Under the pieces are notes generated by a model. The model saw only the letters and a program-made list of their open reading frames with translations, did no database searches and had not been told where the DNA came from. A stretch of 64,000 nucleotides of DNA from Minisyncoccota bacterium (GTDB lineage: Bacteria; Patescibacteriota; Minisyncoccia; Phycocordibacterales; UBA9973), in NCBI GenBank assembly GCA_025453495.1, contig JALOQM010000001.1:15664-79663 (forward strand). The letters run 5' to 3'. Position numbers and translations under genes: made by a program. Positions 27,781-52,227 of this stretch are shown here, in pieces; the first letter of the stretch is position 1; each line of letters opens with the position of its first letter.

Positions 27781-27890
27781 GTTCTGGCGACTACCTACTT
27801 TCCCCACAAGGAGTATCATCGGCTCTAGAGGTCTTAACTTCTCTGTTCGGAATGTAAAAAGGTGTTGCCCCTCCGACTAATCACCAGAAC
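27781..27890 (-). rRNA. rrf: 5S rRNA
   Basis: Terminal stem gttctgg/ccagaac with conserved CCGAAC and GTAGGTAGTCGCC segments; downstream of 23S. Confidence 0.9.
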
Positions 27891-27938: not shown

Positions 27939-28478
27939 CTCGAATATTTGATAAACATTTTCTACAGGGTGAATTTTAATCACAATTTTATTATATTTCG
28001 CTGCATAAGCAGTGAAAATCAAGAAGTCATTGACCTGTTTTGAGAGTTTCCTCTCTATTCCAAGCTTGCTTCTTGTTCGATAAAATCTTTCAATGCTTTT
28101 TGTTATCACTCACATGCCCGTAACAGCAATGGCTATTACGATAGCACGTGGTAAGCACATCCCTTTTCAGAAATTTCTTTCTAAATTGGTCTCTAGTAGT
28201 TAGTTCATCTTATATCTAAGCACATTATTTCAAGTAATTATTGTATTGTCAAGTGGTGATTTCCAAATTTCCTAATAGGAATCGGATAATTAGTACTTCT
28301 CGGCTCCACACATTACTGCGTTTCCACCTAAAGCCTATCAACGTAATCATCTCTTACGATCCTCAAACGATTCCTAATCTTGAAGCTGGCTTCCTTCTTA
28401 GATGCTTTCAGAAGTTATCCATTCCGAACATAGCTACCGGACAGTGCCGTTGGCACGACAGCCCGCACACCAGAGGTT

Positions 28479-28510
<32 letters not shown>

Positions 28511-28562
28511 CCCTTCTCAAGAATCAACGCCTGCAGTAGATAGGAGACCAACCTGTCTCACG

Positions 28563-29095
28563 CATCTATGTTTTACATCCATCATCCTGCGTTACGGGAT
28601 AACAGATCCTTCATTACTGAAGGGATCGGACTGTAACTTATTCATTGATTCACGAATTATGATTTATGATTCAAGAACGCACACATTCAGTCTCTACGGG
28701 TACTATTCGTACTGGAAAGTGGAGTCAATAAGTTTTCACTAATTGACTCACAGTGGACTTTGCATGAAGCCAGTTTAAGATTCATAACAATCCAAGCCTG
28801 GTCACCCAAGCGTATCTGGCACTGCCATTGGTGGTATATTAAACCCCGACAGTATTGATTCCACTTTCCAATACAAATAATTTCCCTCGGTATTGTCCTC
28901 TGATTACTCAGTTCGGATTTTACCGATATACGTGTACTTCACATCACATATCACTATATGATGCCGCCGTGCGTGCGCATACCGCGCACCATGGTCTTAA
29001 TCTCAGATTAAAACATCCTGAAAAAGAATTTCTTCCCTTCAGGTTCCTCAACGGGTTCAAACTGTTAAACCCACAAGGTCATTCTTATGACCTTA
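28563..29095 (-). ncRNA. Group I intron at 23S position 2593 (E. coli numbering), no homing endonuclease ORF
   Basis: Interrupts AAACCGT|CGTGAGACAG and ends in G. Core P (ATATCGGTAAAA), Q (AATACCGAG), R (CCCGTAGAGACTG) and S (AAGTTACAGTCC) elements are present; 533 nt. Confidence 0.9.
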
Positions 29096-29410
29096 ACGGT
29101 TTGAACCCAGCTCGCGTAACTTTTTAATTGGCGAACAGCCAAACCCTTGGCACCTTCTCCAGCGCCAGGATAAGTTGAGCCGACATCGAGGTGCCGAACT
29201 CCGCCGTCGATATGAACTCTTAGGCGGAACTAGCCTGTTATCCCTAGAGTAGCTTCTATCCCTTAATCTTCGGCCGCGTCTAAAGCGGACCATCGGTTCA
29301 CTTGGTTCTGCTTTCGCACCTGCTTGGCATGTACGCCTCACAGTCAAGCCAGCTTGTGCCCATACACTATCGGCACGGTTTCCATTCGCGCCTAGCTGAC
29401 CTTAATAAAG

Positions 29411-29451
<41 letters not shown>

Positions 29452-29742
29452 ACCCACCAGATACTGTCCCTTTGCGTTTTTGCCGCAAGGGTTAGAACAT
29501 GCCACGAGAAAGAATGGTATTTCACTGACGACTCCATATCAACCAAGATCGATACTTCAAAGTCTCCCATCTATGCTACGCAGTCACGCAACATGCTCAA
29601 TATCAAGCTATAGTAAAGCTTCTAGGGTCTTTTCGTCTAACTGCAGGTAATCGGCATCTTCACCGATATTGTATTTTCACCGAGCAAGTCCCCGAGACAG
29701 TTGTCCAGTCATTACGCCATTCGTGCGCGTCAGAACTTACCT

Positions 29743-29793
<51 letters not shown>

Positions 29794-30499
29794 CAGGGCT
29801 TATATCAGTCAGCTTGAGATAATCTCACCGCCGATATTTGACCTTCTGGCATTGGTCAGGCGTCACCCCCTATACATCCTCTTGCGAGTTCGCAGGGAGC
29901 TGTGTTTTTGATAAACAGTTGCCAGACATACTTTCGCTGCGCCCCATGAAATTAATCATGGGGAAGCCTTATTCCGAAGTTACGGCTGCTTTTTTGCCGA
30001 GTTCCTTGGGGACCTCTCACTCGTTCGCCTTGGTCTACTCGACCTGACTACCTGTGTCGGTTTACGGTACGGTTCCTGCGACGTTATACTTAGAGAATTT
30101 TCTCGGAAGCGTGCTTTGTGAAATCTATCCCGGCGAACCGGAACATTTCCGCTGTGTTTGGAGACTGCTATCTAAAGCAGATGCAGGGATTTTCCTCCGC
30201 ATCGGTCCTCACACCACGAACCCAAATCCAATAATGGGCTCCACATACAACCCTTCGTCCTCCCATCGTACGTCGCAGAAGTCACGGAATATTAACCGTG
30301 TGTCCATCGCGTGCGGCTTTCGCCATCCGCTTAGGCCCGACTAACCCTTGGCTGATTGACATTACCAAGGAAACCTTAGTCTTTCGGCGTGCGGGGATTT
30401 CACCCGCATTGCGGTTACTTGTGCCAACATTCTTACTTCCACACGCTCCAGATTGGCTCACGCCTTGTCCTTCACAGCAGAGTGGAATACTCTCCTACC

Positions 30500-30758
30500 G
30501 CTTGCAAACTTCACAGAGGAAGTGAGCGACGTACGAATGTCGCTCACATTTTTTTCTAAATACACACCGTTGGTACGATGCGTAGAACCAATTTGGCACT
30601 CTCACGTTAAACGTGAATCAGAAAAATTCGTGGGGAGAGCCGGATTCGAACCGGCACGGACGTTAGTCCATCAGATTGAAGTCTGACGAGTCTGCCAATT
30701 CCTCCATCCCCCTCAAGAATAAAATAAAAAGAACAATTCCTCTGTGAAGTTTGCAAGC
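30500..30758 (-). other. 23S rRNA intervening sequence in helix 45
   Basis: Perfect 22-bp inverted repeat (30500-30521 / 30737-30758) lies between CCGAATTTGAGG and GGTAGGAGAG, the helix-45 context. Confidence 0.88.
30631..30713 (-). tRNA. Class II (Leu-type) tRNA-like element with UCA in a 6-nt anticodon loop, inside the helix-45 IVS
   Basis: AGGGGGA-TG-GAGGAATTGGCAGACTC-G-TCAGA CTTCAA TCTGA-TGGACTAACGTCCGT-GCCGG TTCGAAT CCGGC-TCTCCCC-A. It has an A1:C72 mismatch and no CCA after A73. Confidence 0.75.
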
Positions 30759-30834
30759 CCTCAAATTCGGTACTACGCTTAGCCCCGATTATTTTCGGCG
30801 CAGAGATTCTCGATGAGTGAGCTGTTACGCTTTC

Positions 30835-30866
<32 letters not shown>

Positions 30867-31304
30867 TCATTGTTTAAGAACCTCTACATCCTTGTTTTGC
30901 ACTCAGCGTAGATTTAGGGACCTTATTTAGAGATCTGGGCTGTTTCCCTTTTGACTGATGGAGCTTCGCCCCCATAGTCTAACTGCTACGTTGTAACTCT
31001 TGGTATTCGGAGTTTGATAGGTGTCGCGAGATTGCTCCCTGTCGAAACCTTCCAGTGCTCTACCCCCAAGAGGATCACGTAACGCTAGCCCTAAAGCTAT
31101 TTCGGAGAGAACCAGCTATTACCAGGTTCGATTAGCTTTTCACTCCATACCACAGGTCATCCGAAGACGTTGTACGATCTACCGGTTCGGGCCTCCCCCC
31201 GACCTTCGTCGGGGTTCACCCTGCCCATGGCAAGCTCACCTGGCTTCGGGTCTTATGTGTGCTACCAATTACGCGCTATTAACACTTGGTTTCCCTGGGA
31301 CTCC

Positions 31305-31412
31305 CCCCGCCTCACTTTTCGAAGTCTCTTGTCTTTCGTTTTACAACAAACATGAGACCTCACATTTTTGATGCTCCTTGTATTTCAAGGAGTTTCAAAA
31401 AGTGGGGCGGGG
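31305..31412 (-). other. ~100-nt expansion or IVS in 23S helix 28
   Basis: ccccgcctcactttt / aaaagtggggcgggg close a stem that replaces the short hairpin between GGCTAAC and GGAG..AGGGAAACC. Confidence 0.7.
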
Positions 31413-31539
31413 TTAGCCGAGCAACACACATAAACTCGTTGGCTCATTCTTCAATAGGCACGCCGTGACGGTAGCAAGCTACCGCTCCGACTCCTTGTAA
31501 GCATACAGTTTCAGGTCTATTTCACCGCCCTTATCGGGC

Positions 31540-31581
<42 letters not shown>

Positions 31582-32383
31582 TTTAAGAGTATTTAGCCTT
31601 GCCGGTTAGTGCCGGCAGATTCCTCCAAGCTATTCGTGTCTTGAAGTACTCAAGAACAGTGACAAAGAAGATATGTTATTTTCGTCTACAGGGCCATCAC
31701 CTTCTGCGGCGTTGCTTTCCAGCAACTTCAACTAACAACATATTTTTTGACTTCTCTAGTAAACTACATCACTGCCTTACAACCCCGACATCCGAAGACA
31801 TCGGTTTGGGCTGTTTCCTTTTCGCTCGCCGCTACTTAGGAAATGTCGATCTTACGATCATTGTTTTCTGTTCCTCCTGGTACTGAGATGTTTCACTTCC
31901 CAGGGTGCGCTCCCGCGTGCGTTCGCACGAAGGCTCTCGAGGGTTGCTCGAGAAGGTTTCCCCATTCGGACATCTTCGGGTCAAAGGTTGCTAGGCACCT
32001 CACCGAAGCTTATCGCAGCCACGCCACGTCCTTCATCGCCTCTTAAAGCCAAGGCATCCACCGTATGCTCTTAATTTCCTATTAGGAAATTTAAAAATCA
32101 CACTTGCACTCCGACACAAGGTCGGAGTTTGTTTTCTTCACGATGCGACCGCTCGCCCCATGAAGAAAACGACTTGCTATACAATTCTTACCTACCTGTC
32201 TCAACACGGCTCAAAGACCCAGAAAGTCTGGTGTGTTGGACAGAATGCAATTATCAATCAGCTGTCTTCCGGTCAATTGTCTGAACTAAAAAACCGCCTG
32301 GCGGCGGCAAGCAAAAACGAGCGAACGTTTATTACTTGCGCCGTAGTTGTCTGTTAGTTGTTTTCATATTTACAATGTCCCCA

Positions 32384-32411
32384 AGTATATAGAAATAAAA
32401 AAAGAAGTCAA
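32384..32411 (-). promoter_or_regulatory. Probable promoter of the 23S-5S transcript
   Basis: TTGACT-N16-TATACT about 300 nt upstream of 23S. Confidence 0.7.
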
Positions 32412-32559: not shown

Positions 32560-32973
32560 CTACTCTTGCTTATATGATTGTCGCATAGCAACAATCTGCT
32601 TGTTGGGATCATTGACTGGATTGTGTCCGCAAGCAGAGATGATATTGCCATGCGAATCAAAAAATAAATCATTCTGATACTCCAGGATAATCGGCGACTT
32701 CAATTTCCAAATCTGTCCTTTAGCCACCCAGCGTTCAAGATCATCTTTTTGCCAAGAGGTTCGGAAACTGAAGCCATGGTAATAACAATCAGGTAATTCC
32801 GGAAAAGAAGTAAAATACTGCATCCGCCGGAGCGACACATCCGATGGGAAATTGTCAGGATACACATACTGGACGTTCAGTTTTTTCTGCTTGATCTCTT
32901 CCACGGTCAATTTACTGGGATCAAACTTTATGGACGTTTTTTCAGGTCCAGGTGATTGTTTCTTCATAGGCAT
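32560..32973 (-). CDS. Hypothetical protein
   Basis: 137-aa ORF bracketed by terminator hairpins at ~32510-32545 and ~33043-33070. Confidence 0.6.
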   Translation of the reverse strand: MPMKKQSPGPEKTSIKFDPSKLTVEEIKQKKLNVQYVYPDNFPSDVSLRRMQYFTSFPELPDCYYHGFSFRTSWQKDDLERWVAKGQIWKLKSPIILEYQNDLFFDSHGNIISACGHNPVNDPNKQIVAMRQSYKQE

Positions 32974-52151: not shown

Positions 52152-52227
52152 CCACCCTTAGCTCAGTTGGTAGAGCAGTCGTCTTATACACGACCGGTCC
52201 ATGGTTCGAGTCCATGAGGGTGGACCA
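52152..52227 (+). tRNA. tRNA with TAT anticodon (tRNA-Ile(UAU))
   Basis: CCACCCT/AGGGTGG acceptor, GCTC/GAGC D stem, GTCGT-CT TAT AC-ACGAC anticodon arm, TTCGAGT loop, A73-CCA; 76 nt. Confidence 0.92.

Follow-up and report, generated by a model that had tools for sequence, protein, structure and literature searches.

A tRNA-Leu-like cloverleaf in a 23S rRNA intervening sequence marks a family of stem-closed cassettes with variable cargo in the Patescibacteria

The window analyzed here is a 64,000-nt stretch of G000, a patescibacterial genome of 685 kb in 12 contigs (97% complete). Its minus strand carries a 23S rRNA gene with a 5S rRNA gene on the 3' side and a sigma70-like promoter on the 5' side (Table 1). 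The 23S gene is single copy (one match in the genome); the 16S gene lies elsewhere, with primers matching contig C1, so the two are unlinked. A 259-nt intervening sequence (IVS), termed the cassette below, interrupts the 23S gene and contains a boxA-like motif, a tRNA-like element, a second folded module and a 3' hairpin between the arms of a long closing stem.

Table 1. Features of the 23S-5S unit and its cassette, in window coordinates.
Feature	Position	Strand	Evidence or remarks
23S rRNA gene hosting the insert	28271..32084	-	Rfam RF02541, 2372.9 bits
5S rRNA gene, 3' of 23S	27782..27888	-	Rfam RF00001
sigma70-like promoter of the 23S-5S unit	32384..32411	-	TTGACT-16-TATACT; consensus match only (10/12)
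Intervening sequence (cassette), 259 nt, tip of helix 45	30500..30758	-	Rfam LSU, fold
Closing stem, 5' arm, family-conserved, predicted RNase III substrate	30737..30758	-	
boxA-like TGTTCTTT, 21 nt 5' of the tRNA-like element	30728..30735	-	
tRNA-Leu-derived class II cloverleaf, non-decoding	30631..30713	-	A1:C72 mismatch, A73; 83 nt
Anticodon loop, 6 nt, CTTCAA	30676..30681	-	No indel in X1
CGA replacing encoded CCA, C74 retained	30628..30630	-	Weak 4-bp leader pairing
Second cargo module, 76-nt four-way junction, without tRNA motifs	30551..30626	-	
3' hairpin stacked on closing stem	30522..30547	-	Terminator-like for the opposite strand too
Closing stem, 3' arm	30500..30521	-	

The insert is located at the tip of one 23S hairpin (model position 1218 in the Rfam LSU alignment), which we take to be helix 45. 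Both its length and its 22-bp closing stem, described in an earlier note, were confirmed at 30758-30500 (30758-30737 paired with 30521-30500 on the minus strand). The folding z-score of the insert is -8.06, with a fold as good in 0 of 200 shuffles, and the fold consists of a stem plus modules, unlike a group I or group II intron; between 30200 and 31100 no intron family in Rfam matches up to E 1. The hairpin-tip site, the long terminal stem and a host rnc gene (RNase III; PF00636, 101.6 bits) are those of an RNase III-type IVS. Two hairpins previously noted downstream of the cloverleaf (30616-30602 and 30547-30522) are also present, the former as part of the four-way junction at 30626-30551; the region 30521-30632 has a fold z-score of -5.59. 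The motif TGTTCTTT resembles boxA.

A 433-nt contig assembled from sequencing run X1 (depth 13.3) covers 30408-30840, including both junctions, without a single difference or gap; hence the 6-nt anticodon loop and the A1:C72 mismatch are not consensus errors. Because X1 is probably the source sample, this match is support from a second assembly and not from an independent population, and contigs drop rare variants. A contig from run X2, which belongs to a different study, shows 4 differences over 436 flank letters and has the arms of G000 at the same site, but between them the 210-nt interior of G000 is replaced by 165 other letters. Among the 24 listed runs, 23 contain less than half of the sampled words. 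Run X3 (perhaps RNA, a guess) leaves the cassette interior uncovered and weighs neither way.

The class II Leu-type cloverleaf reported earlier at 30713-30631 is recovered by ARAGORN (tRNA-???(tc) at 30630-30713) and by Rfam RF00005 (40.8 bits, the gathering score being 29, and E 3e-6); a fast Rfam scan of the whole window missed it. The acceptor strands are AGGGGGA and TCTCCCC, with A1 facing C72; they are accompanied by a D loop with GG, an anticodon stem TCAGA/TCTGA, a variable arm of 15 nt, a T stem paired 5/5, the T loop TTCGAAT and A73. The class II body, Leu-type D loop, long variable arm and A73 of Leu identity are thus all present, while two features of a functional tRNA-Leu are missing: the anticodon loop has 6 nt instead of 7, and positions 1 and 72 do not pair. 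Both defects had been read from the sequence before, and both recur without change in the X1 contig.

Of the 21 true tRNAs from 29 BLAST-selected loci and G000 that score best, 20 are tRNA-Leu (14 of them UAA), and 27 distinct viral tRNAs with the D arm/anticodon-stem pattern of the element have UAG (16) or UAA (11). Judged by sequence likeness, the element most likely descends from a tRNA-Leu, with Leu(UAA) as the parent; the change from CTTAAAA to CTTCAA would take one substitution and one deletion. It may be decaying, since it has the A1:C72 mismatch, no encoded CCA and a weak leader-trailer stalk (-1.7 kcal/mol). The other 143 cargos of the family described below contain no close homologue of it beyond a 39-nt T-arm/acceptor match, and no homologue of the 76-nt junction module. 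No homologue of the element was found in 400 genomes of the class (best match 78% over 71 nt) and no close one in 50,697 phage records (5 matches at 73-77%). The earlier fallback of a one-off captured pseudo-tRNA is thus half borne out: the element lacks a close homologue, but the arrangement recurs in 68 of 141 cassettes.

Besides this element, G000 contains 41 tRNA genes, among them Leu UAA, UAG, CAA and GAG and Trp CCA; C74 is encoded in 41/41, CCA in 8/41 and CGA in 0/41. RNase P RNA, a CCA-enzyme-family gene and nusB were all found, RNase Z and Rho have no match above their cut-offs in G000, and SelA was not found in this 97% complete genome. A prfB-like gene scores 331 bits, below the 370 cut-off. 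UGA is a stop codon in the window, as had been claimed, terminating 62 of 463 open frames of at least 200 aa. In RNase P RNA, a GGU sequence pairs with the 3' ends of pre-tRNAs; where the Rfam consensus has GGU in this loop, the RNA of G000 has AAGU, and the same arm holds an additional insert of ~60 nt. Most members of the family of G000 have a plain short helix at the insert site. Derivation of the cassette stem from host rRNA processing stalks was rejected: G000 contains no second stem, and in 12 short 23S leaders the core of the 5' arm has one match, with 1 mismatch.

Several other features of these genes were recorded. The same 23S gene has a ~530-nt insertion (~28562-29096, minus strand) resembling an ORF-less group I intron by motifs that we take to be diagnostic, with no intron match in Rfam; it contains an insert of its own with a 20-bp stem whose sequence is unlike the 259-nt cassette. 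A further 23S insertion of ~100-110 nt (~31300-31420, minus strand) is close to the other classic IVS site. The sequence GGGTCTTT (32212-32219, minus strand) is common to five 23S leaders of the family of G000 (the window and L305-L307, L309) and is possibly a local boxA variant. Immediately 5' of the 23S promoter is an ORF of 137 aa (32560-32973, minus strand) with no Pfam match over cut-off. A tRNA-Ile with the anticodon UAU is encoded at 52152-52227 (plus strand), and an odd tRNA with a Ser-type body and anticodon ACT lies outside the window (G000:C6:10371-10456). The 3' end of the 16S rRNA (G000:C1, ~9370) has no anti-Shine-Dalgarno motif; its absence from part of the Parcubacteria is reported in PMC9297842.

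The insert is a member of a Patescibacteria cassette family, in which a conserved stem encloses variable cargo together with a boxA-like motif and a 3' hairpin. Among 20 regions fetched from members of the order, 15 have a helix-45 insert and 13 of these share the stem. A search pattern combining 23S flank and stem core gave 97 loci in a genome collection and at least 117 in metagenomes. Among the matches listed, the closing arm was within the fetched DNA in 178 of 215 (window included; the other 37 were dropped), and there are 144 unique cassettes forming 141 clusters at 90%. The 80 titled genome records comprise 67 naming a Patescibacteria group, 12 labelled only as "bacterium" and 1 Burkholderiales, from a pattern that favours Patescibacteria. 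The Burkholderiales record (L063) has its cassette in a 23S gene with flanks 94% identical to those of other carriers and is probably mislabelled or misbinned. In a sample of the order, a 23S match was obtained in 250 of 401 genomes, with at least 22 carriers besides G000 in 18 families. The stem pattern alone was noisy across the 401 genomes, with similarly many control matches; 20 sites were fetched and yielded 10 closed cassettes. Three of these 20 sites (L310, L320, L324) represent a second location, a stem cassette within a group-I-intron-like 23S insertion, and the cassette of L320 has a boxA-like motif and a tRNA-like module.

The family stem is 21 bp long and is paired in 1688 of 1692 cells at the 12 pattern-free positions, with many two-sided changes. 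The boxA-like GTTCTTT occurs in 71/141 cassettes compared with 3-13 in shuffles, and is present in 49/68 cassettes with a tRNA module vs. 22/73 without; by strand, the boxA-like motif is found in 72/144 in the sense orientation and 3/144 in the antisense. A 3' hairpin is predicted in 121/141 cassettes, and cassette sizes extend from 52 nt to 648 nt. None of the 75 pattern matches in viral contigs had a closing arm, and a phage donor of the cassette was rejected accordingly.

Various cargo types are found between the arms. tRNA-like modules (87 in 68 of the 141 cassettes, 1-3 each) are all on the sense strand, with 0 on the reverse strand and 0-3 in shuffled sets; 73/141 cassettes have no detected tRNA module. 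The other cargo consists of small ORFs, folded RNAs and a few rRNA pieces, and there are tRNA-free cassettes of 52-73 nt with almost no cargo. ORF-bearing cassettes without a tRNA are 280-360 nt long. In seven (L089, L101, L123, L195, L206, L238, L256) an ORF of 58-88 aa follows a purine-rich leader, and these align weakly (22-32% to the first); further cassettes have short hydrophobic ORFs. A known family as the source of the ORF cargo was rejected, with 0/14 proteins matching Pfam over cut-off. Short rRNA copies, including three 16S pieces, occur in L082, L094, L121 and L120, and one rRNA-copy cargo shares 23/24 letters with a 23S stretch (E 1.6e-6). Pieces of this kind are scarce (4 at E<=0.01 vs. 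0-2 in shuffles), without excess at looser cut-offs. Non-tRNA modules have a stem plus RCCA ending at 58 sites, a count made with no shuffle control. Based on the 105 cassettes with enough flank, pairs that are 95-98% identical in their flanks mostly have unrelated cargo (26-58%) despite arms that are identical or nearly so; one pair at 98.5% flank identity has cargo that is 79% alike.

The tRNA-like modules are poor in intact anticodon arms, with a canonical arm in 30/87 vs. 38/41 G000 tRNA genes (Fisher p 2e-10, p-values being overstated because family members are kin). The 30 canonical-arm modules have 22 anticodons. Seven modules have 6-nt anticodon loops, of unrelated sequence; a 7-nt UCA loop is absent from all 87, and one has UUA. 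Canonical-looking cassette tRNAs are surplus, with a second gene elsewhere, in 6/6 resolved cases (leaving out Val-UAC and Lys-CUU, and with the Lys-UUU case based on a pattern match only), so a cassette tRNA as the sole gene for its anticodon was rejected in all six. An encoded CCA is more frequent in modules than in G000 genes (52/87 vs. 8/41), as is CGA (13/87 vs. 0/41), and the encoded CCA often pairs with the leader. Among 27 readable host RNase P RNAs (30 examined), 4 have GGU and 15 have AGU. A match between encoded CCA and host GGU is thus unsupported, and RNase P pairing does not explain the encoded CCA because so few hosts have GGU.

For a neutral expectation, we modeled uniform random decay of the G000 tRNA genes, tuned to 26-44% canonical anticodon arms. 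The module parser selects on T arm and acceptor, and with the same filter applied to the simulated decay, the acceptor is paired 7/7 in 72/87 modules (83%; 60-69% simulated), the T stem 5/5 in 80/87 (92%; 63-78% simulated) and the T loop intact (7/7) in 76/87 (87%; 59-79% simulated). The D-loop GG (66/87, 76%) is not clearly above simulated decay (64-75%). U8 is kept in 84/87 modules and C74 in 76/87. The acceptor and T arms are therefore better kept than neutral decay predicts, and selection on shape rather than decoding, previously proposed from the window element, gains support across the family. A kept acceptor/T-arm shape with a free anticodon arm is also a t-element-like trait. In addition, leaders and trailers form stalks: in the 85 of 87 modules examined, a leader and its own trailer pair at -3.93 kcal/mol, compared with -2.14 kcal/mol when leaders are combined with the trailers of other modules (a value this low was reached in 0 of 5000 permutations), and no such stalks occur in 39 G000 tRNA genes.

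We consider it very probable that the insert is an RNase III cassette with exchangeable cargo, in which a non-decoding descendant of tRNA-Leu keeps its acceptor/T-arm surface. From its position and strand, the cassette would be transcribed once per 23S precursor, possibly starting at the promoter-like site at 32411-32384. RNase III would then cut the stem, as in known IVSs, leaving the 23S rRNA in two pieces and freeing the cassette. The module would next be handled as a pre-tRNA by RNase P (cleavage proposed at position 1), 3' trimming to C74 and CCA addition, a step suggested by the enzymes present and the kept C74. Finally, an abundant non-decoding tRNA mimic could soak up proteins that attack or bind tRNA ends and elbows, the proposed targets being tRNA-targeting toxins of phages, hosts or competitors.

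A released mimic acting as a decoy is tentatively the best reading of these sequences. It is ranked first because cargo is varied and the tRNA is not needed for excision, as indicated by the tRNA-free cassettes of 52-73 nt. The same stem without a tRNA, in a total as low as 52 nt, argues against the idea that the tRNA shape serves to fragment the 23S rRNA, as does the lack of an RNase Z above the family cut-off. By analogy with Coxiella, where excised IVS RNA is quickly degraded (PMC4990558), a lasting product may be doubted. The decoy reading is further weakened by the D-loop GG at about its simulated level, the signs of decay in the element of G000, the 73/141 cassettes with no tRNA module detected and the scarcity of rRNA-like pieces.

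The lability of excised IVS RNA in Coxiella fits a second, less probable reading, in which the module is a processing or disposal signal: similar to plant mitochondrial t-elements, an RNase P site would open the tightly folded excised cassette for fast clearance, and the module would be no lasting product. RNase P reads the acceptor, T arm, U8 and C74, and these are the best-kept parts of the modules. C74 is likewise encoded in every G000 tRNA gene, RNase P RNA of G000 keeps GU rather than GGU, which would fit C74 without CCA, and the RCCA-ending stems of non-tRNA modules (no shuffle control) point the same way. However, a disposal signal leaves the existence and fast change of cargo unexplained, tRNA-free cassettes are common (including the ORF-bearing ones of 280-360 nt), and the excess of encoded CCA, frequently paired with the leader, is not accounted for by RNase P given the few hosts with GGU.

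It is unlikely that the modules are near-neutral passengers, i.e., tRNA genes captured into a tolerant site, folded only to spare 23S folding, with the anticodon lost since extra decoding would bring no benefit or do harm. Such a history would suit cargo that is nearly always unique (141 clusters from 144, among the matches listed), the missing homologues of the window element in the 400 class genomes, and the statement in PMC8708148 that no change in ribosome function was detected whether an IVS was present or removed. Yet T-loop letters, which plain folding does not need, are better preserved than neutral decay predicts, the boxA-like motif goes with tRNA cargo, and the modules are all sense-strand.

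Retention of an uncut cassette as an expansion on the surface of mature ribosomes, where it would display the tRNA shape, is improbable. The stem is equally long in short, cargo-free versions, which would be consistent with retention, but rnc is present, RNase III cleaves the known helix-45 IVSs that have stems of this kind (PMC8708148, PMC4990558), cassettes reach 648 nt and several have ORFs, and the same cassette occurs within a group-I-intron-like insertion, which would be spliced out.

The UGA-suppressor tRNA-Leu listed as one option in the earlier note, either as the element is or one homopolymer error away from a 7-nt UCA loop, is more improbable still. At positions 32-37 the loop has the sequence C U U C A A; A73, the D-loop pattern and the long variable arm are kept, and as far as the sequence tells, a 6-nt loop could decode weakly. 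The homopolymer repair is nevertheless rejected by the X1 contig, which has no indel; no family module has a 7-nt UCA loop, the seven 6-nt loops are unrelated in sequence, and among true tRNAs those closest to the element are Leu(UAA). With UGA ending 62 of the 463 long frames, a prfB-like gene (below its cut-off) and Trp(CCA) present and SelA not found, suppression at a ribosome-level dose should be harmful. An opal suppressor or tRNA-Sec is likewise unsupported: the element has no 7-nt UCA loop, SelA was not found and UGA serves as a stop. Lastly, an assembly chimera, which the earlier note had named as a way to fail, has a negligible chance despite X1 probably being the source sample, since one X1 contig is exact across both junctions, the arms recur at this site in X2, which comes from a different study, and the design recurs in 141 cassettes.

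What stands out at this locus is not the UCA triplet but the cassette family, whose tRNA mimics are selected for shape. Although IVSs were already known in 1990, PMC8708148 still describes their role as unclear; a defined IVS family carrying structured cargo under measurable selection makes that role testable. If modules are released products, bacteria with tiny genomes make non-decoding tRNA mimics in amounts on the scale of their ribosomes; if the modules serve just as cut sites, bacteria use tRNA punctuation inside rRNA. A broader and rather unlikely proposal extends the decoy reading: the 23S cassette may be a one-per-ribosome expression slot for fast-changing mimics (tRNA look-alikes of diverse isotypes, now and then a piece of rRNA, and small proteins) that shield Patescibacteria from tRNA- or ribosome-targeting toxins, with the cassette moving between rRNA sites as a unit and cargo swapped by capture. 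For annotation, the surplus and odd-anticodon tRNAs that tRNA finders call in such 23S genes can be mistaken for suppressors or for changes of the genetic code.

The 16S-23S internal transcribed spacer (ITS), with its tRNA genes and boxA, resembles the cassette in having a processing stem, a boxA-like motif and tRNAs co-transcribed with rRNA. In contrast, the cassette is inside the 23S coding region, and the tRNAs it holds represent many isotypes and are for the most part defective and surplus; a spacer of this kind is absent from G000, and the 23S leaders of its family have GGGTCTTT instead. Non-decoding tRNA shapes inside longer transcripts also include mascRNA and menRNA. The link between boxA and NusB is described in PMC13753749. 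Plant mitochondrial t-elements are likewise non-decoding tRNA shapes in longer transcripts, read by RNase P or RNase Z (PMC1920247). t-elements, mascRNA and menRNA make the ends of host RNAs, whereas here cleavage of the RNase III stem should generate them; a further difference from t-elements is that no RNase Z is over cut-off and the element lies within a bacterial rRNA.

Short non-intron insertions at 23IS2 and 23IS4 of CPR 23S rRNA, from the same organism group, are suggested by Tsurumaki 2024 (PMC11270868) to be RNase III-type IVSs and are left uncharacterised there. 23IS4 may correspond to helix 45. The word "tRNA" occurs 0 times in the main text and 0 times in one supplement, and the passages available give no stem family or cargo. 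The literature searched, which included few subscription papers, contains no description of a tRNA or tRNA-like element inside a 23S IVS.

The closest known systems are the RNase III-excised helix-45 IVSs of Coxiella burnetii, Salmonella and Leptospira, which share the site, similar sizes and a patchy spread with the cassettes (PMC4990558, PMC8708148). Their long terminal stem, of 28 bp in Coxiella, has a counterpart of 21-22 bp in the cassettes, and in both an ORF is sometimes enclosed. The ORF cargos of the cassettes are not of the S23p type by the Pfam test, because 0/14 are over cut-off. In the present family, unlike those IVSs, cleavage is predicted and the cargo is tRNA-shaped in about half of the cassettes and rapidly swapped.
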